Source: a virus. From it: a stretch of 64,000 nucleotides of DNA. Positions within the stretch are counted from its first letter, which is position 1. Every line of letters begins with the position of its first letter. The notes under the pieces are model-generated. The model saw nothing but the letters and a program-made list of their open reading frames with translations. It was not told the DNA's origin and did not search any database. The position numbers were made by a program, and so were the translations under genes. The stretch spans positions 299,944 to 363,943 of IMG/VR virus record IMGVR_UViG_3300021963_000021, one strand, 5' to 3'. Of this stretch, positions 2,796-57,232 are shown piece by piece.

Positions 2796-3426
2796 TCTTA
2801 CAAATGTGTTCTAATCTTTCAATATGTTCGTACGCTCGCCACGGAGTCGTATCGATAGCAACTACACCGTGTCCTTTAATGCCTACAATATCGTAGGCAA
2901 CATTACCGTCTCTATCTAGTTGAAGATTCGTGTGGCACTGATCCGCAAGCTCTTGACTAATAGGCGGAACATCTCCGACATTGGGTGCTACTCGAGTATA
3001 ACGGTTAAGCTCCGGAAAAGCATCACTGATAGTACTAAGGTCGATACCGGCATGCATAGCCGCAATACTGTAAGTAGGATGTACATGTACAACTACTCTT
3101 ACCTCGTCCTTATGCTGACCCATTTCTTTTTGTAGACCAAAATGTAATGGTATCTCTCCGCTAGGTACTAGATTTTTACTGATGTCAGTATAGGGTACAT
3201 CTTCCCAAGAGTAGTTGAATGCCGCTGTTCCATATCCACTATGGATGCTTCTGTGTATAGCTATCTTCTTAAATTGGTCAGGTTGTAGTGTTTGCTTACG
3301 CACACCGCTTGGAGTAATGTAGAAGTGATCACGATCATGATGACGGATGCTGACGTTGCCATCACGACTGGTAATCCAATTACGCTTATAAGCGTCTACC
3401 ATAATATCACATATCGTTTCTAACAT
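2764..3426 (-). CDS. class II aldolase/adducin-family protein (fuculose-phosphate aldolase / ribulose-5-P epimerase-like)
   Basis: 220 aa. Contains GNVSIR (substrate phosphate-binding motif) and VHVHPTYSIAAMHAG (metal-binding His pair), both typical of the class II aldolase/adducin fold. Confidence 0.55.
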   Translation of the reverse strand: MLETICDIMVDAYKRNWITSRDGNVSIRHHDRDHFYITPSGVRKQTLQPDQFKKIAIHRSIHSGYGTAAFNYSWEDVPYTDISKNLVPSGEIPLHFGLQKEMGQHKDEVRVVVHVHPTYSIAAMHAGIDLSTISDAFPELNRYTRVAPNVGDVPPISQELADQCHTNLQLDRDGNVAYDIVGIKGHGVVAIDTTPWRAYEHIERLEHICKIVLASGNYGK

Positions 3427-9093: not shown

Positions 9094-9438
9094 TCAAGCA
9101 GTCATTTGCTTATAGGCATTTGCCGCAGCAGTCTGATTGACATTGTCTTTAGATTTATCTATATCTGAACCTGGCTCTTCTCGATCCCGGCTTGTACCAG
9201 GTACTTTGAGTTCTATGCCACGTGGAGTGAAATTTCTAACCATGTTTTGGATCATAGGTGAAGCATCATAAATGCCCTTGAAAGTTTCCTGATCCAATTT
9301 GATACCCTGGCGGGCTAACACTTGATTGAGGTATTCCCAATTGATGTTTGCTGGCTGTCCGCGACTACCTGATCGTCCTATAATATTCTTTAGGACAAGA
9401 GCGACCTGCGAACCATCATCGAATTCATATAATCTCAT
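9094..9438 (-). CDS. hypothetical protein
   Basis: 114-aa ORF in the late block. Confidence 0.3.
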   Translation of the reverse strand: MRLYEFDDGSQVALVLKNIIGRSGSRGQPANINWEYLNQVLARQGIKLDQETFKGIYDASPMIQNMVRNFTPRGIELKVPGTSRDREEPGSDIDKSKDNVNQTAAANAYKQMTA

Positions 9439-9917
9439 TTTAATCCAGCATTTTGTTTTAATCCTGCTAGGGCTTTTTCAAGTTCTGCTACTTGCCCTGC
9501 TAGATTACTTTGATAGTCTTGGTGTGCTTGTGCTACCTGTGCTACCTGTTGTACTGCCTGTTGATTTGGTTGTTGTGCCTGTGCTGTGCTACTGCCGCCT
9601 GTGCTACCACCACTGCTTGGTGATGTTAGTTTGTCTACGGCTTTGGTAGCCAGATTTGATACTACATCTTTGCCTATGTTTTTTGCTCCCTGTACTGCTG
9701 CCTGACCAACTGATCGAGCACCAGACGCTGCTGCGCGGCCAGCAGCAGAAGCTGCTGAACTCACACCTCTACCTACAGCAGATGCTGCAGTACCAAGGCC
9801 TCTAAGAGCAGTTCCACCTACTGCTACTGCGCCTCTACCGATAGCGCCGAGCACAGCTGGCAATATTTCATCTAACTTCTCTTGTTCCTTGTTAGAAACA
9901 ATTTCGTCTAATCTCAT
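9435..9917 (-). CDS. hypothetical Gly/Ala-rich protein
   Basis: 160 aa. GxAxxGxG-type low-complexity repeats followed by a coiled-coil C-terminus. May be a scaffold or internal virion protein. Confidence 0.3.
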   Translation of the reverse strand: MRLDEIVSNKEQEKLDEILPAVLGAIGRGAVAVGGTALRGLGTAASAVGRGVSSAASAAGRAAASGARSVGQAAVQGAKNIGKDVVSNLATKAVDKLTSPSSGGSTGGSSTAQAQQPNQQAVQQVAQVAQAHQDYQSNLAGQVAELEKALAGLKQNAGLK

Positions 9918-10744
9918 CCTGCTAATACTTTTAGTAAGTTGCCTGAACGATCAATGCTTTCTCTTTTTGCGCGGCCTGCTTCTTCTGGTCCGCCTGCTGC
10001 TGGTTCTGCTGCGGCAAATGCGTCTTCACCTTCGTCGCCCATAGCAGCATCTGGATTCATAGCATCTGGTTCTGCTGGAGCACCTAGATCATCTGGAGCA
10101 CCCATGTCAGCTGCTGGATCTGGTGTTTCTGCTCCAAGCATTTCTTCCGGCTGTTCTTCGCCAGTTAGACCACGCACACCAGATGATAGTGTTTCACGTG
10201 TTTGCTTGAGTGTTTCTAATGCTGCTTGAATAGCTGGAGCCACTGCGCTTAAGAATGCCTTAGCTTGTTGTTGTCCCATTTCGTCACGGATGGTATCACC
10301 TAGTTCTAATAGCTGATCATTTTCCATGCCGGCTAGTTCTTCAATCCAGCGACCTACTCTATCTACCATCGTTTTGGCAGTTACCACTGCGCTGGCTTTA
10401 TCAGTGGCGCTTTCTTGAACTCTAGTTGTCATATCTTCTTCCTTTGTTGTTTCGTCGGTTTCCTGGATTTCTTCGCCACCCACAATGTTCTCACCGCGCT
10501 CAGAAATCTCTGCGTTGATCGCATCTAGCATCCATTGTGCTTTAGTGTAAGCATCATTCTCTACAGTTTCGTTAAAGCTAGAACTTTGCTTGTACTGATG
10601 TACTTGTGTGCGAAGTCTGTTTCTAGCGTCTTGTAATTGCTCTAGAGTGTATGATTCTAAGTTGAGCTTCTGCCCAAACGTTTTTTCAATGGTTTCGTTG
10701 ATTTTGCGAGAATCAACTTTCTTAAAAATGTCTGTTGTTTTCAT
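9914..10744 (-). CDS. hypothetical acidic protein
   Basis: 276 aa, strongly acidic C-terminal half (PDAAMGDEGEDAF...). Overlaps neighbours by 4 nt. Confidence 0.3.
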   Translation of the reverse strand: MKTTDIFKKVDSRKINETIEKTFGQKLNLESYTLEQLQDARNRLRTQVHQYKQSSSFNETVENDAYTKAQWMLDAINAEISERGENIVGGEEIQETDETTKEEDMTTRVQESATDKASAVVTAKTMVDRVGRWIEELAGMENDQLLELGDTIRDEMGQQQAKAFLSAVAPAIQAALETLKQTRETLSSGVRGLTGEEQPEEMLGAETPDPAADMGAPDDLGAPAEPDAMNPDAAMGDEGEDAFAAAEPAAGGPEEAGRAKRESIDRSGNLLKVLAG

Positions 10745-11689: not shown

Positions 11690-12085
11690 CTAGTACAGTT
11701 TTTGGATTATGGTATTAAATTTGTCACCCTTGGTTTTGAATACAGGAACATCAAAATTGGTACTATTATTTAATCCATCTACTATTGGAACACCGTCTAG
11801 ATCGTCTAGTAATAGGCCAAAAGGCGATAGGTCGTTGGCATAAGATTCGGATCTTTCTACTTCAAACTCATAGGTCCAATACCTAGCTTTGCCTTTCCAC
11901 GGTTCGGGCAATCGTCCCTCGTCAGATATAGGATCTCGATCAGCTGCCACTATGCCACGTAGATTTATGGCCTGTAGTAGAGCGTTGAAGTTTGATTGTT
12001 GTGCGTGTTTAAGTTCACTAGGGTCACTCCTGTGCGGTCGTGTCCGTGTGATGTCTACTAGTGTTGTTATTCGGAACTTTTCCAT
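11690..12085 (-). CDS. hypothetical protein
   Basis: 131-aa ORF. Confidence 0.3.
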   Translation of the reverse strand: MEKFRITTLVDITRTRPHRSDPSELKHAQQSNFNALLQAINLRGIVAADRDPISDEGRLPEPWKGKARYWTYEFEVERSESYANDLSPFGLLLDDLDGVPIVDGLNNSTNFDVPVFKTKGDKFNTIIQKLY

Positions 12086-37674: not shown

Positions 37675-37862
37675 TGAGTGGACGAGGAATCATCTCACAA
37701 GAAGCAGAACAAGTCTGCGAACTCTGTGGCAAGATCGATGAGTGTAGACCTTACGGTGCTAATGATGAACAAATCTGTTTTGACTGTGCTACATCTACAC
37801 CAGAAGCAACTGCTATATCAGAAAAGAAAATGGCTGCTTATATCTTTGGAGAAACAGAATGA
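37674..37862 (+). CDS. small Cys4 zinc-ribbon protein
   Basis: 62 aa. CELCGKIDEC...CFDCAT. Confidence 0.35.
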   Translation: MSGRGIISQEAEQVCELCGKIDECRPYGANDEQICFDCATSTPEATAISEKKMAAYIFGETE

Positions 37863-38035
37863 TAAGACTTTGGTTGGTATTTGCTATCCTTGCTGTTCTT
37901 ATTCACTTTGGCATTTCAACGTGGAGAAAGATGGAAGGCAAAGAGCGTCTGTCATTGACAAAATCCATTGCCTATAGTATAATTGTTTCATTGCTAGCGT
38001 TGCTGGTAATGACCACCCTTGTTATTTTATTTTAA
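37859..38035 (+). CDS. hypothetical small membrane protein (58 aa)
   Basis: MIRLWLVFAILAVLIHFGISTW... with two predicted TM segments. ATGA overlap with the upstream ORF. Not in the ORF track. Confidence 0.3.
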   Translation: MIRLWLVFAILAVLIHFGISTWRKMEGKERLSLTKSIAYSIIVSLLALLVMTTLVILF

Positions 38036-38044
38036 GGAAACATA

Positions 38045-38854
38045 ATGAAGCGTATTTTCACCCTTTCTATTCTCGCCGCCGCTGTTTTGGCAACGGGTTG
38101 TACTCGTATCGAAACTGGTGAAGTTGGCCTCCGTGTTGGTTTTGACAAGCAGGTTAAGAACGAGGAATTGCTGCCTGGTTCGTTTAATCAAACAATCATC
38201 GGTGATGTTCTTACATTCCCTGTGAAAGAAGTTGCTGTCAAAGTCGATGACATTACTCCACAAGCCAGCGACAACTCGACAATGAAAGACTTTGATTTGA
38301 CTGTTATCTATAACATCAATCCAAGTCAAATCGCTGAGATTTATAATACAAAGAATAAGAGTTTCCACGCTAATCACAATGGTGACACTTATTTGATGTA
38401 CAACTACATTTTCAATGCCGCACGTAACGCAACCTATAAAGCTGCTCGTAAGTACGAAGCGTTGAATATGGGTGATAACCGTGCTACCATGGAAGCTGAT
38501 ATCAAAGATGGCGTTACCAAAACGCTAGCCGATGAAAAGCTAGACGGTACTATCACTGTTACGCAAGTATTAATTCGTAGCATTATTCCAGCAGACAGTG
38601 TTGTTGCCAGTGCTAACGAGTTAGTTCGTGCTAAGAACGAAACCAAGCAGAAAGAAGCAGAAGTTCGTACTGCTCAACTTGAAGCACAGCGTATCCAAGC
38701 ATTGGCACAAAACGCTGGTGCTATCCAATACATGGACGCACAGGCTCGCATGAAGCAGGCAGATGCTGCTCTTAAGGTTGCCGAAGCTATCGCTAATTTC
38801 AAAGGTCAAACTTTGGTAATCGGTGCTGGTGCTAACGTAAACGTTGGCAAGTAA
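38045..38854 (+). CDS. SPFH/band-7 (prohibitin/stomatin-like) domain lipoprotein
   Basis: 269 aa. Lipobox LATGC. ETGEVGLRVGFDKQ...LPGSFNQTIIGDVLTFPVKEVAVKVDDITPQASDNSTMKDFDLTVIYNINPSQIAEIY follows the SPFH N-terminal pattern. Coiled-coil C-terminus. Confidence 0.5.
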   Translation: MKRIFTLSILAAAVLATGCTRIETGEVGLRVGFDKQVKNEELLPGSFNQTIIGDVLTFPVKEVAVKVDDITPQASDNSTMKDFDLTVIYNINPSQIAEIYNTKNKSFHANHNGDTYLMYNYIFNAARNATYKAARKYEALNMGDNRATMEADIKDGVTKTLADEKLDGTITVTQVLIRSIIPADSVVASANELVRAKNETKQKEAEVRTAQLEAQRIQALAQNAGAIQYMDAQARMKQADAALKVAEAIANFKGQTLVIGAGANVNVGK

Positions 38855-38855
38855 T

Positions 38856-39305
38856 ATGAAGCTGTTCGGACGTAGTAGTGGATACTACCTATTCTGGACA
38901 GGCTTTGTATATTTCTGGGTGGGCATGTATCTTGCGTTCACGCAGGCTGCTCGCCCAGAAATTGCCACACTAGGATTTATACTGGCTCTTAGTGTACCGC
39001 TTTGGTGTCCGCCAGTTGCTCGTCATTTCAATATGGAGCCTTTGATGTTTGATTTTTTTAAGAAAAGAGATTATTCTAACGTAGTCAAGTTTCCAGAAGC
39101 TAAAGAAGTTCCCTACGTCGAACCTCCTAAGGAAAAAGAAAAACCTACCCATACGTACTATCGGTTAGGACTTACTGACAATAACCGTGTTAGCTTTACG
39201 ATGGGCTATAGTGAAATTACTATGAATGCCGCAGGTATTGACAGTATGATTAAACTGCTAGAAACCTATCGAGATATGTTAAACGAAGAGCATGATGGTG
39301 AGTAA
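38856..39305 (+). CDS. membrane protein (possible NfeD-like partner of SPFH protein)
   Basis: ~150 aa with two TM helices at the N-terminus. Start chosen at the ATG (MKLFGRSS...). Translationally coupled to the SPFH gene. Confidence 0.35.
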   Translation: MKLFGRSSGYYLFWTGFVYFWVGMYLAFTQAARPEIATLGFILALSVPLWCPPVARHFNMEPLMFDFFKKRDYSNVVKFPEAKEVPYVEPPKEKEKPTHTYYRLGLTDNNRVSFTMGYSEITMNAAGIDSMIKLLETYRDMLNEEHDGE

Positions 39306-39592
39306 TGCTACAACTAAGATTTGAACTAAAGAATCCTTGGTCTAAAGATCGTTTTAAGAATCTAGGCTGTGTCAGCGGACGCATTTCCAAGAATAAAGCG
39401 TGGGAATTAGAACACACATTCTATGATGGTCTCATAGCAGACTGTGAGTTTAAGTTCACGACCAAAGAAGATCATGCTGGTCTAAACATTATGATAGGTG
39501 TTCTAGGCTACGCTGTTCATTTCAGCATCTACGATACTAGACACTGGGACTACGAAAACAACTGTTGGCAAGTTTATGAAGATTTGCGCTAG
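39305..39592 (+). CDS. hypothetical protein
   Basis: 95 aa. Its TAG stop lies within the first 7 nt of the downstream tRNA. Confidence 0.3.
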   Translation: MLQLRFELKNPWSKDRFKNLGCVSGRISKNKAWELEHTFYDGLIADCEFKFTTKEDHAGLNIMIGVLGYAVHFSIYDTRHWDYENNCWQVYEDLR

Positions 39593-39660
39593 AAGCCTAA
39601 TGGTCAGGCACGGGTCTCTAAAGCCCAGGATAGCAGGTTCGATTCCTGTCTAGCGCACCA
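39586..39660 (+). tRNA. tRNA with anticodon CUA (amber-suppressor-like, class I, amino-acid identity unknown)
   Basis: 75 nt: GCGCTAG-AA-GCCT-AATGGTC-AGGC-A-CGGGT-CTCTAAA-GCCCA-GGATA-GCAGG-TTCGATT-CCTGT-CTAGCGC-A-CCA. Perfect 7-bp acceptor stem, 4-bp D stem, T-loop TTCGATT and encoded CCA. The anticodon stem has 3 G-C pairs, a U-G wobble and one C-A mismatch. The loop is C-U-CUA-A-A (U33, A37). Confidence 0.6.
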
Positions 39661-41172: not shown

Positions 41173-41347
41173 ACACTTTAAAAATCAAATAGAGCAAGGT
41201 GCTAAAGAGATGTTTTTCTATGCACTTGAAAATGCAGATCAAACTCGAGTAGAAATCAAAAGCCATAAAGGCACTATTGATACGTTTCCCGATCTAGAAT
41301 ATATTCGCCATTTAAGTGATGGCGTGCCGTTATTCAAGAATAAATAA
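41162..41347 (+). CDS. hypothetical protein
   Basis: 61-aa ORF. Confidence 0.3.
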   Translation: MFNEHFKNQIEQGAKEMFFYALENADQTRVEIKSHKGTIDTFPDLEYIRHLSDGVPLFKNK

Positions 41348-41423
41348 ATTTGTAGCGGGTGCTACAAACCAACACTCTTTAAACACTAGGTACTTAGAGT
41401 GTGTACCGTAACAAGGAGAAAAC

Positions 41424-42146
41424 ATGATGTATGAATCAAAGCTCGCCGCGGCTATCAAAGTAAACGGCAAAGTCCTCCGTGAATTCAAGGACACAGTCTA
41501 TATTCCATTTGCCAGTGAATATAGCATTCTACTAAAAAATCTCAATACAACTAGAGCAGTGGTCAATGTGTTCATTGATGGCGAAGATATGGTGCCTGGT
41601 GGTATCGTTCTTAACGCTGGACAGGAAGTTGATCTAGAACGTTCTGTAAAAAACGGCAATCTCAACGAAGGCAACAAGTTTAAGTTCATCGAGCGTACAG
41701 GTGCTGTAGAACAGCATCGCGGAGTTAAACTAGAAGACGGTCTTGTTCGTGTAGAGTTCCAGTTTGAACAGCCGTATCGCCCAATCTGGAATACTTCTAA
41801 TATCTCAGGAGGTATCTATCCACAGGGCAGCATCTTAAGAAGCAGCGATGTTTCTTACAGCACCAACGCTTCACTGAACTCTGTGACGGCTTCTGCTACA
41901 TCTGCTACCTTCGATGCTGGCATCACTGTGCCAGGCTCAAAGAGCGAACAGAAGTTTTCTACTACCTATGTAGGCACATTAGAAAGTGTTAAACATAGCA
42001 TAGTATTCCGTCTACTAGGCGGAGAAGCTGTTAAAGAAGCTGTGACTGTTAAGCATAAACCAAAATGTGTTACCTGCGGCAAACAGAACAAAGCCACTGC
42101 CAAGTTCTGTACCGAATGTGGCACTGCTTTGGAAATATTCGCTTAA
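41424..42146 (+). CDS. hypothetical protein with C-terminal zinc ribbon
   Basis: 240 aa. C-terminal CVTCGKQNKATAKFCTECGTAL. Confidence 0.35.
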   Translation: MMYESKLAAAIKVNGKVLREFKDTVYIPFASEYSILLKNLNTTRAVVNVFIDGEDMVPGGIVLNAGQEVDLERSVKNGNLNEGNKFKFIERTGAVEQHRGVKLEDGLVRVEFQFEQPYRPIWNTSNISGGIYPQGSILRSSDVSYSTNASLNSVTASATSATFDAGITVPGSKSEQKFSTTYVGTLESVKHSIVFRLLGGEAVKEAVTVKHKPKCVTCGKQNKATAKFCTECGTALEIFA

Positions 42147-42164
42147 AAATCACGCAGCGGGTCT

Positions 42165-42193
42165 TGACAGGTCCGCTGCTTTCACTTATACTG
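42165..42193 (+). promoter_or_regulatory. sigma70-like promoter (TTGACA-17-TATACT) overlapping a hairpin
   Basis: cagcgg-gtcTTGACAggt-ccgctg forms an inverted repeat that probably acts as a terminator for the upstream gene. The -10 is TATACT. Confidence 0.5.
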
Positions 42194-42226
42194 TATAGAC
42201 ATAAACAACTTCATAGAAAGACACAC

Positions 42227-43294
42227 ATGACTTACTTTCTTAAAATGGGCACCACTTTCCGTGTCAGCACCAAAGAAGCTCTTGACCTACATGAGCAACT
42301 GCCTGCTGGCAACTACGTGGTTAAGAAAGACGAAATGACTGGACAACTGTTCTTGGAACAGATTGACAAGTTCGAGTTCAAAGGCAAGATCTACGGCGAT
42401 GCTAATCGTCGTGCTGAACGTATCCTTAACACATTTATGGATCGAGATAACAGCACTGGCGTTATGCTCAACGGTGAGAAAGGTTCAGGCAAGACTCTGT
42501 TGGCTAAGACGCTGAGTATCAAAGGCTACGACATGGGCATTCCTACTATTGTTATCAATGCTCCTTGGTGTGGTGACAAGTTCAATGCGTTCATTCAAAT
42601 GATTGAACAGCCTGTGATTATCATCTTTGACGAGTTTGAAAAGGTCTACGATGAGCAGGAACAGGAACAGATGCTGACATTGTTGGATGGTGTTTACCCT
42701 TCAAAGAAAATGTTTGTATTAACCTGTAACGACAAATGGCGTGTAAACAGCCATATGCGTAATCGTCCTGGTCGTATCTTTTACTCACTGGAGTACAAGG
42801 GTCTTGAAGAAGACTTTATTCGTGAGTACTGCGAAGACAATCTCAATGCTAAAGAGCACATCGAAAAGATCGTGGGCATCGCTGGCACGTTTGATCAGTT
42901 CAACTTCGACATGCTGAAAGCCATGGTCGAAGAAATGAATCGATACAACGAGACTCCGCAAGAAGTCATGATCATGATCAATGCTCGTCCTGAGTACAGC
43001 AACACCAGCCGTTACGCTGTCAAGTTGGTGCGCAATGGTGAAGAGCAGGACATCGAGTTCCGCGAGTGGGAAGGCAATCCTTTGACCAAACACATTTCTA
43101 TCGACTACAAGGTCGTGGAAAACAAAGGTACAGAGGAAGAAGAATGGGACTGGAACAATGTTCGATTCACTCCTGCGGATCTCAAGAAGATCGACGATGC
43201 TGGACAGAAGTTTGTGTTTGCCAACGCAGATGGGTCACAACTGGTGCTTCAGAAAGCCAAAGAGAAAGAATACCGTTACTGGGACGCTTTCTAA
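42227..43294 (+). CDS. AAA+ ATPase
   Basis: ~355 aa from the ATG at 42227; the ORF-track extension to 42065 covers the promoter. Walker A GEKGSGKT, Walker B IIIFDEFEK, sensor-1 VLTCN. Confidence 0.6.
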   Translation: MTYFLKMGTTFRVSTKEALDLHEQLPAGNYVVKKDEMTGQLFLEQIDKFEFKGKIYGDANRRAERILNTFMDRDNSTGVMLNGEKGSGKTLLAKTLSIKGYDMGIPTIVINAPWCGDKFNAFIQMIEQPVIIIFDEFEKVYDEQEQEQMLTLLDGVYPSKKMFVLTCNDKWRVNSHMRNRPGRIFYSLEYKGLEEDFIREYCEDNLNAKEHIEKIVGIAGTFDQFNFDMLKAMVEEMNRYNETPQEVMIMINARPEYSNTSRYAVKLVRNGEEQDIEFREWEGNPLTKHISIDYKVVENKGTEEEEWDWNNVRFTPADLKKIDDAGQKFVFANADGSQLVLQKAKEKEYRYWDAF

Positions 43295-43528: not shown

Positions 43529-44203
43529 TTAATTTTTCTTTCTTATCTCTGTTCGGTAATACTGTTTAGCAGTAAGAATAACAGCACCAACAAATGGTAA
43601 TATCTTTTCTACAAAATCATGTAGTGGGTCATTCCATTTGTCAATAAAAGGTTCGTGTACTATCATATTGCCTGCCACATAGTATAAAACAAAAGCACCA
43701 ATGTAAATTGTGCTAGGATATTTATCAAGTATGTTAGCGACTAACGTGCTACCAAACAAGATGATAGGTACACTAATTAGTAGTCCAGCGATGATTAAAA
43801 TCCAATTACCACTTGCGGCACCTGCGATTGCTAGTGCGTTATCTAAGCCCATGACAGCATCTGCCATTACGATTGTGCCCATTGCTCCCCAGAATGTTGT
43901 AGCAGCTCTGACATTACTATGATCGTTGTTGTTAGAAGTTAACTTCCAAGCGATGTAGATCAACGCAAGTCCGCCGACTAGTCTTAGCCCAGGAATCATT
44001 AGCAAATATGTAAGAGCCGCAACACAGGCAAAGCGAACACCTACAGCACCAAAGGTACCCCAAAGCATAGCTCGTTTACGTAGGGGTTCTGGTAGTTGTT
44101 TAGACGCCATTGCTATAACCAGTGCGTTTTCGCCTCCTAGTACAACGTCTATTAAGATGATGGCTATTAAAGCCCATAAGAATTGAAGTGAGAGAATTTC
44201 CAT
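43529..44203 (-). CDS. TerC-family integral membrane protein (YjbE/YkoY/Alx-like)
   Basis: 224 aa with ~7 TM helices. Duplicated motif GGENALVIA...(M)GLDNALAIAGA is characteristic of the TerC family. Confidence 0.7.
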   Translation of the reverse strand: MEILSLQFLWALIAIILIDVVLGGENALVIAMASKQLPEPLRKRAMLWGTFGAVGVRFACVAALTYLLMIPGLRLVGGLALIYIAWKLTSNNNDHSNVRAATTFWGAMGTIVMADAVMGLDNALAIAGAASGNWILIIAGLLISVPIILFGSTLVANILDKYPSTIYIGAFVLYYVAGNMIVHEPFIDKWNDPLHDFVEKILPFVGAVILTAKQYYRTEIRKKN

Positions 44204-44306
44204 AAGTTTCCTTTAAATTTATGGTCTCGTCTCTTTGTCTACACACCGGGCTTGCGCCGTGATGACGATGTATAAAACCTTTTCAGGTTGACTACTCCCC
44301 AGGAAA
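44204..44306 (-). promoter_or_regulatory. structured 5' leader of TerC-family gene; candidate yybP-ykoY (Mn2+) riboswitch-like element
   Basis: Minus-strand RNA: UUUCCU-GGGGAGUAG-UCAACCUGAAAAGGUU...CACGGCGCAAGCCCGGUG...GACAAAGAGACGAGACCAUAAAUUUAAAGGAAACUU-AUG. It has the GGGGAGUAG and GAGAC/ACCAUA blocks, a closing helix UUUCCU/AGGAAA, and GAAA- and GCAA-capped hairpins. Confidence 0.4.
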
Positions 44307-44316
44307 TATTTATAAT
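44288..44316 (+). promoter_or_regulatory. sigma70-like promoter (TTGACT-17-TATAAT)
   Basis: TTGACTactccccaggaaatattTATAAT. Divergent from the TerC late box. Confidence 0.55.
44307..44314 (-). promoter_or_regulatory. T4-type late promoter box TATAAATA (minus strand) upstream of TerC leader
   Basis: Plus strand reads tatttata. Overlaps the divergent plus-strand -10. Confidence 0.45.
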
Positions 44317-44385
44317 AAGTAACATAGACATTAACAAAAGGAGATTAACATGTCAAAATAGATTGAATATGCTTGTAAGGACATA

Positions 44386-44928
44386 GTGTTTCACTTTAAC
44401 AAGAAGCACTTAGAAGATCAGACCATTCCCATGTGGGTCTTAAAATTCCATGGCGAAACCCTGTATGTAAATCACGTTGATTGTACTGTTGCTTGGTCAA
44501 CAAAAGAAACGCCTGATAACACACATACCAAAGGCAGCATCAAAGTCAAAGACGTACTGCTACGTATCAATGATGCCAACGAAGCCCAAATATCTCAATT
44601 AACACTGGTAGACAAGTTTAGGTTACGAAACCAAAAGCTGGGTATCACACGAGTGATGTTTAGCCCTAATGTCGCATTCCATAAAGCTCTACAGAACAAC
44701 GAGTTCAAGCATGGTCCGTTGAAACACATCCGTGGTGCTTGTGCCAGTTCGTTCGTGATCACTGATCTCACTGTGAAATCAGAAGTCACTATGGCCCTGT
44801 TAAAGTACAGCAACCAATTTAGGATTGTACAGCCCAACGAAACTTATTATCAGCAGTATGACAATGTCAAGGGCGAGAACCTACATGTGGATTATGGACA
44901 TCCTAGCACACCTTTTGAGTACAGTTAA
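44386..44928 (+). CDS. hypothetical protein
   Basis: 180 aa from a GTG start. An upstream in-frame ATG at 44350, with a strong AAGGAG RBS, is separated from this ORF by a single TAG codon (M-S-K-TAG-I-E-Y...). Confidence 0.35.
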   Translation: MFHFNKKHLEDQTIPMWVLKFHGETLYVNHVDCTVAWSTKETPDNTHTKGSIKVKDVLLRINDANEAQISQLTLVDKFRLRNQKLGITRVMFSPNVAFHKALQNNEFKHGPLKHIRGACASSFVITDLTVKSEVTMALLKYSNQFRIVQPNETYYQQYDNVKGENLHVDYGHPSTPFEYS

Positions 44929-44957
44929 CTTGACAGTTTGATAATATGAGCATATAA
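44929..44957 (+). promoter_or_regulatory. sigma70-consensus promoter
   Basis: TTGACAgtttgataatatgagcaTATAAT. Confidence 0.65.
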
Positions 44958-44991
44958 TTAAACATCGTAACAAATCTTTGAAAGGTACATC

Positions 44992-45441
44992 ATGGCCAGA
45001 GGTCGAGCACAACTTCCTGAAAAGCTAGAACGCATTATGGTACAGGCCACTCTCACAGGCTTGACCACTGCTGACATGATCAAGATCGCTAATCGTATGC
45101 GAGCCCTAGACGAAGAACGTCGTCAACGTGCTGACATCGATGAAACTATTGCGGGCTACACCTGGACAGCGATCAAAAGTGGTTGGCGAATTGTTGGCAC
45201 TGAAGGCCATGTGTTCGACTGTATCCGTAGTGTCAAGCGTCGACGTGAGCAATGGCGTGGACTAGAAACAGTTTGGACTATCACTGTGACTAAACCAGGA
45301 ACTCGATACAAGACCCGCGAGATCAAGGATAGATCACTGCGCATTGGCCACGACTGGAAGAAGCATATGATGCCCGAAACCAGCAAAGATCTCTATGCGT
45401 TGATCAGATTCATCGGCGGCACTAACTGGAGTCAAGAATGA
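44992..45441 (+). CDS. hypothetical protein
   Basis: 149-aa ORF. Confidence 0.3.
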   Translation: MARGRAQLPEKLERIMVQATLTGLTTADMIKIANRMRALDEERRQRADIDETIAGYTWTAIKSGWRIVGTEGHVFDCIRSVKRRREQWRGLETVWTITVTKPGTRYKTREIKDRSLRIGHDWKKHMMPETSKDLYALIRFIGGTNWSQE

Positions 45442-45772: not shown

Positions 45773-46116
45773 TCAATTGGGCACAGGGTGTGGAAGATCT
45801 CAAATATGTGGGAATGGTTATTCCGCCAGAATGCCAGCAGAGTCTAGAAAGCTATCTAGTACGAGGATGGGCACCTGGGGGTTTCTTGACCAGTTGCCTA
45901 GCTGGAGATATGTTTCGTGCTGTGCGTGTAGCAGACACAGGCAATCGTCGTATGCTGTGGGCTATCGTTACTTGGATCATGGACAATGCGCCTGAGCATA
46001 GTTGGGGAAGTTATGAACTTGTGGAAGATTGGCAGAACGATAAAGATGGCCGTCGTTCGAATTATGCCTTGGCCTGTGAAAAAACTCGTGTATGGGAGAT
46101 TCTTAAAGATGGATAA
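45754..46116 (+). CDS. hypothetical protein
   Basis: 120-aa ORF. Confidence 0.3.
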   Translation: MDSHTMINWAQGVEDLKYVGMVIPPECQQSLESYLVRGWAPGGFLTSCLAGDMFRAVRVADTGNRRMLWAIVTWIMDNAPEHSWGSYELVEDWQNDKDGRRSNYALACEKTRVWEILKDG

Positions 46117-46348
46117 AGCATTCTGTAAAGACCTATTGTATGCGGGCATAACTGAGCTGATGGAAAACCGCAGATACTACTATACCAGCACTGTGGGTGT
46201 CAACTACAGCCATTGGACCGAAGAAGGCAAACAAGCAGTCAATGAATTGTTGGAGTTGATGACGCCTAAGATACAACAAGCACAGCACAACGAACTAGAT
46301 CGTCGTGCCAAAGATATGGTTATGAAAGAACTTAAGAAATCCAGTTAG
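46109..46348 (+). CDS. hypothetical protein
   Basis: ~79 aa from the ATG (MDKAFCKDLL...). The ORF-track N-terminal extension overlaps the previous gene. Confidence 0.3.
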   Translation: MDKAFCKDLLYAGITELMENRRYYYTSTVGVNYSHWTEEGKQAVNELLELMTPKIQQAQHNELDRRAKDMVMKELKKSS

Positions 46349-46917
46349 AACCAGTTTGTCACAGCCTGTTTGGCTGATTCCTGTACAGCCCAATCCCACA
46401 TGTTTTCAGGGTCTGTTTCGTAGACAAAGTCTATGCTGGGCTGTGACAGTGTCAGCCAACTGTGACTGGGCTTCCAAGGACCTTCCCCTGATAGCTCGCC
46501 TGTGAGCTGCCCTGGTGCCCATCCAGCATGTCCAAAGTAGGCCTGCCAGTATTCGGGCTGTTCACCAGTCATCATGTATTCAAACATCTTGACATCTGAA
46601 GTCAAACCCAAACGTCCGTCAATGACCTGTGTTTTGTTGGTCTGCCAGTCTAGACTGTGTAGTAGGAACACCACGTGAGGCTGTACAGGTCCACCCCAAT
46701 AGAGCTGATGCTCTGCGATGTTGTCAGTCATGCCATCTACTAGACTGCCCACACAGTGTTCTGAGGGTCTGTTTAGCACTATGCCCATGCTGCCCTGATT
46801 GTCACTGTGATCTGTGAGCATGACCACAGTCTTGTGAAATCTAGTGTCTTTGTTAGTTGGGGGTGCGATCAAACAATCGCCAGGTTTGAGTTGTTGTGTT
46901 TTAATCATTAAGACCAA
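46345..46917 (-). CDS. YqgE/AlgH-family (UPF0301) protein
   Basis: 190 aa. DCLIAPPTNKDTRFHKTVVMLTDHSDNQGSMGIVLNRP matches the AlgH/YqgE N-terminal signature (..GAMGxIxNRP). Confidence 0.55.
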   Translation of the reverse strand: MVLMIKTQQLKPGDCLIAPPTNKDTRFHKTVVMLTDHSDNQGSMGIVLNRPSEHCVGSLVDGMTDNIAEHQLYWGGPVQPHVVFLLHSLDWQTNKTQVIDGRLGLTSDVKMFEYMMTGEQPEYWQAYFGHAGWAPGQLTGELSGEGPWKPSHSWLTLSQPSIDFVYETDPENMWDWAVQESAKQAVTNWF

Positions 46918-49753: not shown

Positions 49754-50014
49754 ATGACATTACCCGACGAAAGATATCGTGCTGTATCGCAGACTCGCAG
49801 GTTTCTTCTGGATCTCTGTAACCCTGAACACACGCCCAGAGTGCCTAGGCTGGTAAGGGAAACTGCTCGCAGCATGTTGAGACACTATCCCTCTGACTGG
49901 GAACTAGATCAGCTAGCTGCTGCTGCGCCTGAGCTTTTACAGCAGCGTATGGAACCTTTGTATAGGATGATCAAGCAATATGAACTGGACTCTGACCACA
50001 CAGATCCCACATAA
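49754..50014 (+). CDS. hypothetical protein
   Basis: 86-aa ORF overlapping the TilS-like start. Confidence 0.3.
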   Translation: MTLPDERYRAVSQTRRFLLDLCNPEHTPRVPRLVRETARSMLRHYPSDWELDQLAAAAPELLQQRMEPLYRMIKQYELDSDHTDPT

Positions 50015-50612
50015 GTGCGTCGTAGCTGTGTCGGGCGGTGCGGACAGCATGGCTCTGTTACACTTTGCTGCGCAGGACTCACGTAGGGAAGTCACTGCTG
50101 CTGTATACGATCACGGCACGGGTGCTCACACTAGTGCGTTTCCACTAGTAGAGGCCCTGTGTGATCGACTAGGGATTGATGTTGTAACTGCCCGGCTAGC
50201 AGCTGAGAGATCACGTGGGCAATCTAGGGAAGATCACTGGCGCCAGCAACGTTACAGATGGTTGCGCACATTGGGTCAGCCGGTGTTAACTGCTCACAAT
50301 CTAGATGATGTCGCTGAGACCTGGCTGTGGAGCACGTTACATGGTCAGCCCACATTAATGCCAGCAGAGAACCAGGCGGTGCTGCGTCCACTGTTGGCGG
50401 TCCGGCATGCGGAGCTGGCTAAGTACTGTGAGCAGCATTCAATTGACTACTGGCTGGACCCTGCGAACACAGATCACGATCAGTTCGCGAGACCCCGTGT
50501 ACGATATGTGCTCAAGCCCGCAGCAGAGTACGTCCACCCAGGATTTTTCACTGTCTTGCGCAAAAAACTGTTGACACGTCGGCAGTTAGATCATATACTA
50601 GAACACTGTTAA
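49980..50612 (+). CDS. tilS: tRNA(Ile)-lysidine synthetase-like PP-loop ATPase (catalytic domain only)
   Basis: 210 aa. PP-loop VAVSGGADSMALLH, LTAHNLDDVAETWLW (TilS HhLDDqaET motif) and YWLDPANTDHDQFARPRVR (TilS DPSN..F.RNR motif). Lacks the long C-terminal domain of E. coli TilS. Confidence 0.65.
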   Translation: MNWTLTTQIPHKCVVAVSGGADSMALLHFAAQDSRREVTAAVYDHGTGAHTSAFPLVEALCDRLGIDVVTARLAAERSRGQSREDHWRQQRYRWLRTLGQPVLTAHNLDDVAETWLWSTLHGQPTLMPAENQAVLRPLLAVRHAELAKYCEQHSIDYWLDPANTDHDQFARPRVRYVLKPAAEYVHPGFFTVLRKKLLTRRQLDHILEHC

Positions 50613-50620
50613 GAGATAAC

Positions 50621-50697
50621 GCCCCTATAGCTCAATAGGTAAGAGCACCCGACTCATAATCGGTAGGTTCCTGGTTCAAATCCAGGTGGGGGCACCA
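50621..50697 (+). tRNA. tRNA-Ile2-like (anticodon CAU, lysidine-type)
   Basis: 77 nt with encoded CCA. The anticodon arm CCCGA-CUCAUAA-UCGGU and the overall sequence closely resemble E. coli ileX tRNA-Ile(LAU); they are unlike initiator or elongator Met tRNAs. Lies immediately downstream of the TilS-like gene. Confidence 0.7.
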
Positions 50698-54824: not shown

Positions 54825-55913
54825 ATGGCAAAAAGCACAGAAGCAAGCAACATCCGCACCGTAGGTCCTAAGGGTGCTATCAAGGCAATTAGCAAGGCTA
54901 TTGCCAAGCGTCGTCCACTCTTCCTCTGGGGTCCCCCCGGCATTGGTAAGAGTGATATCGTCAAGCAGATTGGCGATACAGCAGGCCGCGAAGTCATTGA
55001 CATTCGCTTGCCACTTTGGGAGCCCACTGACATCAAGGGTATCCCTTATTACAACTCAGACAGCAAGAGCATGGTGTGGGCACCTCCTAGTGAATTGCCT
55101 ATGGACCCAGATAGCAACGCTATCATCTTCTTGGACGAGCTTAACTCTGCTCCTCCGGCTGTCCAGGCTGCGGCCTATCAGTTAGTTCTGAATCGCCGTG
55201 TTGGCACCTATGTGCTTCCCAAGGGTGTAGATATTGTAGCGGCAGGTAACCGTGACGGTGACCGTGGTGTTACCTATCGTATGCCTAAGCCACTGGCTAA
55301 CCGCTTCCTACACTTGGAAATGAAACCTGACTTCGATGACTTCCAAGAGTGGGCTGTTATGAACAAAGTCCACGCAGAGGTTGTGGGTTACCTGGGCTTT
55401 GCCAAGCAGGACTTGTTCGACTTCGATCCTAAGTCTAGCTCACACGCATTCGCAACTCCTCGCTCTTGGAGTTTCGTTAGCGATCTGTTGGCAGACGACG
55501 ATGTCGACACTGACACGCTGACTAACTTGGTCGCAGGTGCTGTAGGTGACGGCCTCGCACACAAGTTCATGGCTCACCGTAAGGTTGCGGGCAAGATGCC
55601 TAAGGCCGCAGACATTGTCGACGGCAAAGAGAAAGAGCTTAAGATCAAGGAAGTGTCTGCGATGTATTCCTTGACCGTTAGCCTGTGCTATGAGCTCAAG
55701 GATCGTGCGGACAAGAAGGTCAAGGGTTGGGACTCTATGGCAGACAACTTCTTCCGCTACATGATGGATAACTTCCCAACAGAGTTGGTAGTGATGGGTG
55801 CCAAGGTTGCCCTTACCAACTACAACTTGCCCTTGGACGCTTCGAAGATGAAAAACTTCGACGAGTTCCATCAGCGTTTTGGCAAGTATGTTTTGAAAGC
55901 CATGGAGAACTGA
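54825..55913 (+). CDS. MoxR-family AAA+ ATPase (CobS-like)
   Basis: 362 aa. Walker A LWGPPGIGKS, Walker B IIFLDELN, with the AAA_5 / MoxR-type arrangement. Phage homologues are often annotated cobS. Confidence 0.65.
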   Translation: MAKSTEASNIRTVGPKGAIKAISKAIAKRRPLFLWGPPGIGKSDIVKQIGDTAGREVIDIRLPLWEPTDIKGIPYYNSDSKSMVWAPPSELPMDPDSNAIIFLDELNSAPPAVQAAAYQLVLNRRVGTYVLPKGVDIVAAGNRDGDRGVTYRMPKPLANRFLHLEMKPDFDDFQEWAVMNKVHAEVVGYLGFAKQDLFDFDPKSSSHAFATPRSWSFVSDLLADDDVDTDTLTNLVAGAVGDGLAHKFMAHRKVAGKMPKAADIVDGKEKELKIKEVSAMYSLTVSLCYELKDRADKKVKGWDSMADNFFRYMMDNFPTELVVMGAKVALTNYNLPLDASKMKNFDEFHQRFGKYVLKAMEN

Positions 55914-55972
55914 GACCTCGCTATGGCGTTCAGGGTGGAGTGCCAGCCCAGGTGCTCCGCCCACCTATTCGG

Positions 55973-56001
55973 TTGACAAGCAGGGCAGATGATAGTATAA
56001 T
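55973..56001 (+). promoter_or_regulatory. sigma70-consensus early promoter
   Basis: TTGACAagcagggcagatgatagTATAAT. Confidence 0.7.
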
Positions 56002-56026
56002 ATATACATACTAAGGAGAGCGAACA

Positions 56027-57232
56027 ATGGATCCAATCGTAGAGAAACTAACAACTGCCCGTATCGGCCTTCTTCTCAAGCACCCTTTCTTTGGCAACAT
56101 GGCTACTCGTATGCGTCTTATCGACGCCAGCGACTGGTGCCCTACAGCGGCAACTAACGGCCGTGACTTTATGTATAACAAGGACTTCGTTACCAAGCTC
56201 AGCGAAAAGAAGCTGGAGTTCCTGTTCGCACATGAGATCTGCCATGGTATCTTTGATCACTTTGGTCGTGTTGGTAGCCGCGATCGGCAACTGTCTAACA
56301 TCGCACAAGACTACGCTGTGAACCAGATCCTTGTGGACGAGCGTATCGGCGACAAGATCACTGAAGTTAAGATCTGCTATGATCCAAAGTATCGTGGCAT
56401 GGCTTGGGAAGAGATCTACGATATCCTTTGGGAGAAGGCAGAGAAGATTCCTATGGATCAGCTCTTGGCTCAGTTGGGTGACCTGCTTGACGAGCATATC
56501 AAAGAGCAAGAGGGTGCGGGTGCCGGCGATGACAAGACCAAAGACGGCAAAGACAAGCCTACTATGAGCAAAGAAGAAGCTCAGAAGATCCGTGATGAGC
56601 TCAAAGAAGCCATGATCCAATCCGCACAGGCCGCAGGTGCTGGTAAGGTGCCCGCAGGTATCCAGCGTATGATCAAGGACTTGACTGAGCCTAAGATGAA
56701 CTGGCGTGAAGTGCTACAGATGAATATCCAAAGCATTATCCGCAACGACTACTCCTTCCAACGCCCTAACCGCAAGAGCCAGCACAGTGGTGCTATTCTT
56801 CCAGGTATGAAGAACGATCAGACTGTGGATGTGGCTATTGGCATTGATATGTCAGGCAGTATCGGGCAAGAGGATGCTACCGTCTTCTTGAGTGAGGTCA
56901 AGGGCATCATGGAGCAATACGAAGACTATGCTATCGATATCTGGTGCTTTGACACAGAGATCTACAACCACAAGCGTTTCACACACGACGACGGTGACGC
57001 TCTGTTGAGCTATGAGCCTCAGGGTGGTGGTGGCACAGACTTCGAAGTCAATTGGGAGTTCATGAAGGACATTGACTTGGTACCTAAGAAGTTCATTATG
57101 TTTACTGACGGTTACCCATGCGGTGGCTGGGGTGACGAGGACTACTGCGATACCCTGTTCATTGTCAAAGGCTCTAACAACGAAGCACCGTTTGGACAGA
57201 CTGTGATCTATGATGAAAAGGTTACTGCGTAA
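56027..57232 (+). CDS. VWA-domain protein with N-terminal HExxH metallopeptidase-like motif (CobT/DUF2201-like partner of MoxR ATPase)
   Basis: 401 aa. FAHEICHGIFDH contains HExxH. The C-terminal half has the MIDAS motif DMSGSIG of a von Willebrand A domain. Confidence 0.6.
   Translation: MDPIVEKLTTARIGLLLKHPFFGNMATRMRLIDASDWCPTAATNGRDFMYNKDFVTKLSEKKLEFLFAHEICHGIFDHFGRVGSRDRQLSNIAQDYAVNQILVDERIGDKITEVKICYDPKYRGMAWEEIYDILWEKAEKIPMDQLLAQLGDLLDEHIKEQEGAGAGDDKTKDGKDKPTMSKEEAQKIRDELKEAMIQSAQAAGAGKVPAGIQRMIKDLTEPKMNWREVLQMNIQSIIRNDYSFQRPNRKSQHSGAILPGMKNDQTVDVAIGIDMSGSIGQEDATVFLSEVKGIMEQYEDYAIDIWCFDTEIYNHKRFTHDDGDALLSYEPQGGGGTDFEVNWEFMKDIDLVPKKFIMFTDGYPCGGWGDEDYCDTLFIVKGSNNEAPFGQTVIYDEKVTA

Follow-up and report, generated by a model that had tools for sequence, protein, structure and literature searches.

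This analysis concerns a 64,000-nucleotide stretch of viral DNA (hereafter the window) taken from the IMG/VR record IMGVR_UViG_3300021963_000021 (positions 299,944 to 363,943). The window encodes a transfer RNA with the anticodon CUA (tRNA-CUA) and, 4.7 kb downstream of it, a gene at 44350-44928 whose frame is interrupted by a TAG at codon 4. We propose, with a probability of about 0.8, that tRNA-CUA gates the translation of this gene. The two would form a conserved two-part module, an amber lock on a single gene for which the tRNA is the key, and not a recoding of the genome. The proposal is carried by the tRNA itself, the conservation of the TAG (the gate), the coding constraint across it, the co-occurrence of gene and tRNA in related phages and the absence of other gated genes nearby.

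The gated gene and the standard code around it

The layout of the gated gene is exactly that of the readthrough candidate named in the original prediction, in which an ATG with an AAGGAG ribosome-binding site is followed by Ser-Lys-TAG and then by an in-frame open reading frame (ORF). The TAG is followed by 188 sense codons in a frame that stays open to a TAA at 44926-44928 (Table 1), and gene callers place the start at GTG 44386 rather than at ATG 44350. The pattern of a Shine-Dalgarno (SD) motif, an ATG, up to ten codons, a stop and an ORF of 80 or more occurs once in the window, at the gated gene. Across about 240 loci of related phages it was found 181 times with TAG (174 of them in the gated family), 17 times with TAA and 16 times with TGA.

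The N-terminal domain of the gated protein has 466 relatives in IMG/VR and at least 1,354 in metagenome protein sets. The arrangement of SD motif, ATG, one to three codons, TAG and the residues IEYACKD is kept in 13 distinct relatives at 50-78% amino-acid identity, and in all 79 close IMG/VR loci (the best loci that could be scored) a TAG immediately precedes the conserved N-terminus. Among 242 loci there are 171 gated copies, which comprise 98 distinct N-terminal sequences; the layout is kept in them and the TAG is invariant. The leader varies in length from one to nine codons (MK, MS, MA, MTK, MTQ, MAQ, MQ, MSK, MSQQ, MSKQ, ML and MIDLNPIAI among the homologues). The base after the TAG is A in 93 of the distinct sequences and G in five, and an SD-like motif precedes the leader ATG in 97. 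Together with the coding constraint and the co-occurrence described below, the invariant TAG in the 171 copies bears out the candidate.

Homology that continues across the TAG had been named beforehand as a test, and it is found in this family. In the nine codons that follow the TAG, variation falls mainly on synonymous third positions (GAA/GAG, TAT/TAC, GCT/GCA/GCG/GCC, TGT/TGC, AAG/AAA and GAT/GAC). An invariant Val9, which is the site of the GTG start chosen by the gene callers, is encoded by GTG in 55 variants, GTC in 17, GTT in 13 and GTA in seven. Homologues that lack the gate begin M-[IVT]-E-x-x-C, and in three of five such proteins examined this Met occupies the place of the TAG; because these ungated proteins start there, the segment after the TAG is part of the protein. 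In the AF2 model this segment is built into the first β-strand. A conserved in-frame stop is thus combined with coding constraint directly downstream, as expected of programmed gene-specific readthrough. No readthrough-stimulating RNA structure was found after the TAG (alifold of 48 diverse sequences, -1.96 kcal/mol; z-score of the window sequence, -1.06).

Elsewhere in the window the standard code is in use. The window is densely coding under it, and the long ORFs, including virion and tail genes, are intact (code 11). The stops in the non-overlapping ORF set are TAA (58), TGA (41) and TAG (14); the last figure includes several spurious antisense ORFs. TAG-terminated genes are found at 882-1178, 11690-12085, 37678-37977, 39305-39592 and 45986-46348. 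Homologues of 882-1178, 39305-39592 and 45986-46348 stop at the same place, mostly with TAA or TGA (for 882-1178, on the minus strand, 13 homologues end there with TAA); both relatives of 37678-37977 likewise end in TAG, and 11690-12085 has no informative homologue. Because homologues end there with TAA or TGA, these terminators are ordinary stops, and TAG, though rare, is a true stop in this phage; that TAG still serves as a stop had been held in the original prediction from the example of 882-1178. Conserved C-terminal readthrough of the TAG-terminated window genes was considered and ruled out, as the homologues use TAA or TGA. The accompanying claim that intact long ORFs exclude genome-wide recoding also agrees with the relatives: across their structural-region genes, 22,806 aligned residues from 26 relatives (442 kb) are free of in-frame stops.

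The search for other gated genes near the locus was a tblastn screen for TAG interruptions; its all-ORF set was dominated by off-frame 'shadow' ORFs, and the result rests on the non-overlapping gene set. No in-frame TAG was found in relatives in the conserved genes near an AAA ATPase gene (42065-43294 in the window), and within 10 kb on either side in about 240 loci there was no other recurrent TAG-interrupted gene, only upstream-extension noise and single cases at loci L149 and L169. The original prediction had spoken of selected TAG codons in the plural; readthrough is supported for one gene family, and no second recurrent target emerged in the regions searched. At L149 an IscU/NifU-like gene (9173-9668) has an in-frame TAG and a three-codon insertion inside the conserved GAPACGD motif. 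This locus has the gated gene and no tRNA-CUA within 10 kb, and the TAG may represent another amber site, or else a mutation or an error of assembly. In-frame stops also occur in ORFs at 41330-41689 (minus strand), antisense to a zinc-ribbon gene at 41424-42146. Their seeming conservation in 24-27 loci mirrors that of the strongly conserved sense gene, of which they are shadows, and they gave false positives in the TAG screens.

The suppressor tRNA and its association with the gated family

The well-formed 75-nt CUA cloverleaf of the original prediction was recovered by ARAGORN, the check proposed there, at exactly 39586-39660 on the plus strand with the anticodon CTA. Rfam RF00005 matches 39586-39657 over the full model (positions 1-71) at 57.2 bits (gathering score 29; E = 1.1e-9). 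The acceptor stem is a perfect 7 bp (GCGCTAG/CTAGCGC), the discriminator is A73 and CCA is encoded. The anticodon lies at positions 34-36 between U33 and A37 (loop CU-CUA-AA) on a 5-bp stem, and the tRNA has G18G19, a TTCGA T-loop and a 5-nt variable loop. From related phage contigs 86 distinct homologous CUA tRNAs were recovered, all of which encode CCA and 80 of which have A73; their anticodon loops are CTCTAAA (64), TTCTAAA (19) and TTCTAAC (three). In an alignment of 47 CUA tRNAs, compensatory double-sided changes are found at 16 of the 18 predicted cloverleaf pairs and the TCTAA core is invariant. The gene is under selection as a tRNA, and the match is far beyond chance.

As originally noted, the 5' end of the tRNA overlaps the TAG stop of ORF 39305-39592, which falls within tRNA positions 5-7. 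Homologues of this ORF terminate in TGA or TAA. With neither the TAG nor its overlap with the tRNA conserved, the overlap is lineage-specific and no part of the mechanism. An RNase P cut at the 5' end of the tRNA (39586) would sever the mRNA of the ORF 4 nt before its TAG and leave a non-stop message. The placement of the tRNA among early genes, also part of the original description, would follow from sigma-70-like promoters only.

To assess the association of tRNA and gene, the AAA ATPase gene was used as an anchor. IMG/VR contains 116 relatives of it, many of them from freshwater metagenomes and on contigs of 100-350 kb, and 80 of these loci were fetched without regard to the gated gene or tRNA-CUA. 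About 30 of the 80 have a CUA tRNA close to the ATPase, in many cases accompanied by a large tRNA array and a transfer-messenger RNA (tmRNA) gene, and tRNA-CUA is therefore a conserved trait of a clade of large uncultivated phages. Gene and tRNA-CUA are both present in 23 loci, the gene alone in none, the tRNA alone in five and neither in 52 (Fisher p = 1.4e-15, from counts that are not phylogenetically independent and to that extent weigh less in favour of gating). In the five tRNA-only loci the sequence stops no more than about 13 kb from the ATPase, and in three of these it does so within a few hundred bases; eight of the 52 loci with neither hold 7-24 other tRNAs. When loci were anchored on the gated gene, 72 of 80 had tRNA-CUA on the same strand, usually 0.1-7 kb upstream and often 100-400 nt; five of the remaining eight sit at a contig end.

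The association extends to homologues without a gate. Six distinct ungated two-domain homologues keep tRNA-CUA upstream on the same strand, at about 235 nt in L179, L196, L219 and L236 (with a hairpin and T-run between), 2.0 kb in L169 and 6.7 kb in L170. Among single-domain forms (about 85 residues), 29 of the 40 gated copies have tRNA-CUA within 6 kb, and 29 of the 36 ungated copies have it nearby. Since ungated forms still adjoin tRNA-CUA, the family, marked by an invariant FHFNK motif, is a genomic partner of the tRNA in its own right. Gates also occur at other positions. Single-domain homologues in L260 (about 6021) and L264 (about 6006) start normally at an ATG, and their in-frame TAG falls in a domain loop, at codon 16 (HFNKAHITDP*GIPPW and HYNKAHNADP*NIPPW, respectively, with the TAG as an asterisk); tRNA-CUA lies 0.5-1 kb upstream in both, and this looks like an independent gating event. 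In L169 an ATG-AAA-TAG gate heads an ORF (9625-9999) that resembles the peptidyl-tRNA hydrolase PTH2, directly before an ungated family member (10001-10573); the Pfam PTH2 match covers the whole profile and is weak (19.6 bits, below the cut-off of 23; E = 1e-3). In-frame UAG has thus been acquired at different places in the system of tRNA and FHFNK protein.

By overall similarity, tRNA-CUA is about 70% identical to every class among 181 co-resident phage tRNAs. Its G1-C72 pair and A73 set it apart from the co-resident tRNA-Gln, which begins with U or A and mostly has G73, and from tRNA-Trp (G73), and its acceptor end resembles several A73 classes, including Lys, Leu, Glu and Thr; acceptor end and discriminator argue against Gln and Trp and favour no one amino acid. 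The Q found at the TAG position in database homologues of 189-193 residues was rejected as an indication of Gln insertion, as the underlying DNA reads TAG and the gene caller had used code 15. Such public gene calls come from short contigs (P0002-P0120) and begin 'MSQIEY...' or 'MKQIEY...'; calls from long contigs shorten the gene to the GTG or to the Met of PMW, and both types hide the amber codon (L084 2938-3513 is a further case).

Proposed mechanism and alternatives

In the proposed mechanism, the gated mRNA would be made by host polymerase from the gene's own promoter (44288-44316) and would carry a strong SD motif; the sigma-70-like character of the promoter is the reason to expect that host polymerase can transcribe the gene. 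The gene looks monocistronic, lying between two host-type promoters, because a perfect sigma-70 consensus (TTGACA-17-TATAAT, 12/12; 44930-44958, plus strand) begins 2 nt past its stop, before ORF 44992-45441. tRNA-CUA would be transcribed, cut from a polycistronic transcript and charged by some host synthetase. Without it, release factor 1 (RF1) would stop translation after Met-Ser-Lys; with charged tRNA-CUA present, the ribosome would read UAG as sense and the full protein would be made. Release factors act poorly when the nascent chain is only two to four residues long, and a purine after UAG is a context that favours suppression; a UAG at codon 4 followed by a purine would favour the tRNA over RF1. 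The early UAG would also make the off state cheap, the product being a tripeptide and not a truncated protein. The inserted amino acid is probably irrelevant: as the site lies in a variable leader any residue should suffice, and the tRNA would accordingly need only to be accepted by one of the host synthetases.

Several points weigh against gating and have to be set beside the alternatives. That readthrough takes place is something that we infer, and neither similarity nor identity elements single out the amino-acid class of tRNA-CUA. As tRNA-CUA persists next to ungated homologues, opening the gate cannot, on this comparison, be its sole role. In addition, ATT, a rare possible start codon, directly follows the TAG in 85 of the 98 variants, a GTG with an AAGGA-like sequence lies eight codons past the TAG in the window, and some tRNA-independent initiation may occur in the ATT and GTG lineages. 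These features favour a rival in which SD-ATG-NNN-TAG is a leader ORF of two to four codons, translation terminates and reinitiates at ATT or GTG, and the tRNA is unrelated; Val9 is moreover GTG in 55 of 92 variants, and the AAG-GAY codons often create AAGGA 5-6 nt upstream. We nevertheless regard reinitiation as very improbable. The other 13 variants have GTA, ATC, AAC, AAA, ATA or GTT after the TAG, in 38 of the 98 the stretch from the TAG to FHFNK is devoid of ATG, GTG and TTG, and all four valine codons are used for Val9. In Rhizobium phage RHph_I1_18 the TAG is followed by AAC and the next in-frame ATG, GTG or TTG is the Met of PMW, past FHFNK. Reinitiation would also leave unexplained why the stop is always TAG and never TAA or TGA and why co-occurrence with a CUA tRNA is near-perfect, and it could not bypass the TAG at codon 16 in L260 and L264. 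A reading of tRNA-CUA as a pyrrolysine tRNA that inserts pyrrolysine at UAG is scarcely credible. ARAGORN labels every CUA tRNA 'tRNA-Pyl', a label that means CUA only, and GenBank gives the same name to the CUA tRNA of RHph_I1_18. Pyrrolysine tRNAs are without G18G19 or T-psi-C and have a 3-nt variable loop and a 6-bp anticodon stem, whereas tRNA-CUA aligns end to end with the canonical model in all of these features; neither pylS nor pylBCD was found among the window proteins scanned.

Two further alternatives accept the tRNA as a suppressor and give it other work. In the one, which we consider unlikely, the phage is partially recoded as in Lak, crAss-like and other TAG-recoded phages, and the tRNA serves many TAG-containing (late or lysis) genes outside the window, the gated gene being only one among these. 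As a rule, phage CUA tRNAs go with TAG recoding of late genes; among the stops used here TAG is the least frequent, and a tRNA beside ungated homologues must have another use. The window is also 64 kb of a contig of ~364 kb (about 18%), and other TAG-containing genes may lie elsewhere, which is a further point against a single target. Partial recoding is opposed by the virion and tail genes of the window, all intact under code 11, by the structural-region genes of the 26 relatives with no in-frame stop, by the want of a further recurrent TAG-interrupted gene around the roughly 240 loci and by the real genes that TAG still terminates. In the other alternative the tRNA is directed at the host, where it would cause readthrough of host TAG codons or act as a stand-in or decoy against anticodon-nuclease defences, with the gated gene as a passenger or sensor. 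The tRNA kept beside ungated homologues would fit, as would the several loci with two CUA tRNAs, the tmRNA and large tRNA sets of relatives, the Pnkp/RnlA tRNA-repair genes that phages of the Atu_ph07 type carry beside the homologous domain, and the failure of the authors of other jumbo-phage genomes to find phage targets for CUA tRNAs. We judge it more improbable than recoding: a decoy would be expected to keep the anticodon of the nuclease's target and not an invariant CUA, no result here concerns host genes, and the repeated gain of in-frame TAG by one gene family would be left unexplained. A host-directed function is also compatible with a real gate and does not strictly exclude gating.

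With gating by tRNA-CUA retained as the preferred reading, we infer, less confidently, a joint action of protein and tRNA in which the UAG ties synthesis of the protein to suppressor activity by feedback or feed-forward; the partnership is probably autoregulatory. Such a partnership would explain the repeated gain of UAG in the FHFNK family, the tRNA beside ungated copies and the recurrence of PTH2 described below. It is possible, if on balance doubtful, that the protein itself regulates or uses the suppressor. Equally tentative is a self-contained suppression-control circuit in which the FHFNK protein acts on the suppressor tRNA, on peptidyl-tRNA or on RF1 at the UAG; the UAG in the protein's own mRNA would then close a feedback loop that sets the strength of UAG readthrough in the infected cell. 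If true, this circuit would give phages an equivalent of prfB autoregulation, composed of a tRNA and a protein fold not described before; its purpose might be a tuned readthrough of TAG stops in host or phage, or counter-defence.

The FHFNK family, related systems and genomic context

The gated protein has no sequence match in Pfam, PHROG, NCBIfam or the PDB, and Foldseek with its model returned nothing significant. AF2 predicts an all-β N-terminal domain (pLDDT 90.6) and, in the full-length model (pLDDT 77.2), a ferredoxin-like C-terminal domain. Relatives provide a link to PTH2. The metagenomic protein P0170 is a PTH2-FHFNK fusion (PTH2 at 32 bits), and a PTH2 gene lies two genes upstream of the homologue in Agrobacterium phage Atu_ph07 and Sinorhizobium phage Phosso (59-61 bits). 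PTH2 is thus linked to the family in three independent ways (fusion, operon and neighbourhood). These links and the one to tRNA-CUA are the sole pointers to a function, and the recurrence of PTH2 points to tRNA, peptidyl-tRNA or the ribosome as the candidate substrate of the protein. In the window protein itself (44362-44925) Pfam gave no PTH2 match even at E = 0.1.

Among deposited phages, tblastn with the gated protein returned four records from three phages only: Atu_ph07, Phosso and RHph_I1_18. RHph_I1_18 (L088; MN988519.1, 171 kb) has an unannotated amber-gated ORF at 2977-3225 (MSEFM-TAG-NESCREVIFHFNK...), in which an SD motif is followed by ATG AGT GAG TTC ATG TAG AAC GAA TCG TGC (MSEFM-UAG-NESCREVIFHFNKAHLADPSIPMWVVK...). 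The ORF comprises 82 codons including the UAG and is flanked by a methyltransferase gene and by an annotated tRNA-Pyl(cta), 11 nt before which it ends. Right after this suppressor, at 3317-3392, ARAGORN calls an odd tRNA-like sequence with a 2-nt 'anticodon'. In Atu_ph07 and Phosso, phages of 470-490 kb, the domain forms the C-terminal part of an ungated protein of ~175 residues with an N-terminal helical extension. Its gene forms a cluster with PTH2, a small ORF and a Pnkp-like gene that has AAA_33 and Metallophos domains (L087 2049-4517 in Atu_ph07; L089 2046-4571 in Phosso). RnlA lies near the cluster in Atu_ph07, and the cluster is a tRNA-repair context. The only suppressor tRNA of Atu_ph07 is opal (UCA), not amber.

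Comparison with known systems sets the proposed module apart. In recoded gut phages, CUA tRNAs read many in-frame TAGs in late genes (bioRxiv 10.1101/2021.08.26.457843), and jumbo-phage surveys likewise tie CUA tRNAs to TAG recoding. The recoded Lak, crAss-like and other gut phages (Borges et al., 10.1101/2021.08.26.457843) share with the module a phage-encoded CUA tRNA, in-frame TAG, a host presumed to use the standard code and the idea that suppression gates particular genes. Here, in contrast, one gene is affected and not dozens, and the TAG lies at codon 3-10 of a non-conserved leader and is not scattered through structural and lysis genes, the structural genes being untouched and TAG remaining a real stop. 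The phages are also jumbo phages of freshwater and soil rather than of the gut, with cultured relatives on Rhizobium, and the gated protein is genomically tied to the tRNA even when ungated. XacN1 and RsoM2USA are closer in being large phages with many tRNAs, the standard code and one or two CUA tRNAs. The authors of XacN1 searched past all 18 amber stops and identified no target genes (PMC5852040), and the RsoM2USA paper names no specific CUA-tRNA target (PMC8504454), whereas a specific conserved target is identified here; neither phage was among the tblastn matches of the gated protein in the phage collection.

Other parallels concern the logic of an early stop. The prfB gene, which encodes release factor 2, has an early in-frame UGA passed by a +1 frameshift and so senses its own product. 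The gated gene has the same early in-frame stop, with output that depends on stop decoding, and the same decoding-sensor logic; it differs in that suppression would be by a tRNA, and an influence of the protein on UAG decoding is our proposal. In pyrrolysine and selenocysteine decoding, too, a dedicated tRNA decodes the stop of certain genes, and elsewhere the codon continues to terminate translation. Here, in contrast, the tRNA is of the canonical type, the gate lacks a conserved RNA element downstream, the residue at the decoded position is not a functional one, and no dedicated synthetase or biosynthesis genes were seen. In lambda bar minigenes peptidyl-tRNA drop-off is favoured, with an interplay with peptidyl-tRNA hydrolase. 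They share with the gate a strong SD motif, an ORF of two to three codons and a stop, a likeness that is intriguing given the PTH2 link; here a conserved protein follows in the same frame, and the stop, invariably UAG, has a CUA tRNA as its partner. The same design, an early UAG in a target gene that is expressed only when a suppressor tRNA is supplied alongside, removes leak in synthetic amber-suppressor circuits for feed-forward control and biocontainment (e.g. PMC7969014), whereas the present arrangement is natural, ancient and widespread.

A literature search of incomplete coverage turned up no earlier account in which one conserved amber-gated gene is paired with a suppressor tRNA of a phage. 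The targets of suppressor tRNAs in standard-code jumbo phages have been an acknowledged blank, for which a specific conserved target with about 170 related gene copies is now proposed. The module would indicate that the machinery of stop-codon reassignment can exist as a minimal two-gene regulatory unit as opposed to a genome-wide code change; it fits the route of 'suppressor first, recoding later' proposed for recoded phages and could be the seed of that route. The analysis also defines a widespread uncharacterized protein family linked to tRNA-CUA and PTH2, and reveals an annotation trap in which the gated gene is truncated, missed (RHph_I1_18) or translated with code 15 as 'Q'. The module is directly testable, as a cultured Rhizobium phage carries it, and a natural amber lock and key may serve as a compact orthogonal expression switch.

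The window has a G+C content of 44% and no close relative among 50,697 deposited phages. No DNA match to the locus or the tRNA, near-identical or distant, was found in INPHARED phages and IMG/VR; segments identical to the window are also present on ENA and JGI metagenome contigs. Its gene content includes ribonucleotide reductase, virion and tail genes, DNA ligase, a ClpP-like protease and TerC. The auxiliary genes unusual for phages encode a MoxR-like AAA ATPase followed by a DUF2201 metallopeptidase/VWA protein, and further the TerC membrane protein, a Band_7/SPFH protein and an AlgH-like DUF179 protein (Table 1).

Table 1. Coordinates of the gated gene, the suppressor tRNA and other features; positions are those of the window unless a locus is named.
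Feature	Coordinates	Strand	Basis
Amber-suppressor tRNA gene, anticodon CUA	39586-39660	+	ARAGORN, Rfam RF00005, homologues, covariation
Upstream 95-residue ORF, TAG stop (39590-39592) inside the tRNA acceptor stem; incidental neighbour	39305-39592	+	Sequence, ORF list
Putative sigma-70-like promoter, TTGACT-17-TATAAT, 11/12 consensus, directly upstream of the gated gene	44288-44316	+	Consensus scan; pattern match
SD motif AAGGAG, 6 nt before the ATG	44338-44343	+	Sequence
Leader codons ATG-TCA-AAA (Met-Ser-Lys)	44350-44358	+	Sequence
Amber gate, in-frame TAG, next nucleotide A	44359-44361	+	Sequence; conserved TAG
N-terminal 'FHFNK' domain, about 83 residues, all-β, conserved core of the family	44362-44610	+	
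C-terminal domain, ferredoxin-like, ACT/RRM-like β-α-β-β-α-β, with TAA stop	44611-44928	+	
Auxiliary genes named in the text, listed together	54825-57232 (+); 43529-44203 (-); 38045-38854 (+); 46345-46917 (-)		
Permuted tmRNA genes of relatives	L005 9549-9951; L011 10235-10633; L013 11761-12176; L017 12601-13041; L022 2170-2695; L042 6878-7294		

The window holds a second pair of a tRNA and a partner protein. A gene for a TilS-type tRNA(Ile)-lysidine synthetase N-domain (49980-50612, plus strand; TIGR02432 at 105 bits against a cut-off of 93.6; Pfam ATP_bind_3) stops 8 nt before a 'tRNA-Met(CAT)' at 50621-50697 (plus strand). Because of this adjacency the tRNA is probably a tRNA-Ile2, with CAU modified to lysidine by its own enzyme. 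Neither ARAGORN nor Rfam found a tmRNA in the window. In relatives, permuted (two-piece) tmRNA genes adjoin the ATPase near the tRNA-CUA module, with tags such as ANDTRFALAA, ANDNVYALAA and ANDESYALAA; suppression, non-stop ribosomes and tmRNA may be connected. The tRNA complement of the clade is unusual: the tRNA arrays of L015, L020, L021, L024 and L041 contain short tRNA-Leu genes of 77-79 nt with a short variable arm, and 'tRNA-Ile(TAT)' genes of 85-95 nt that may hold introns or be mis-called.

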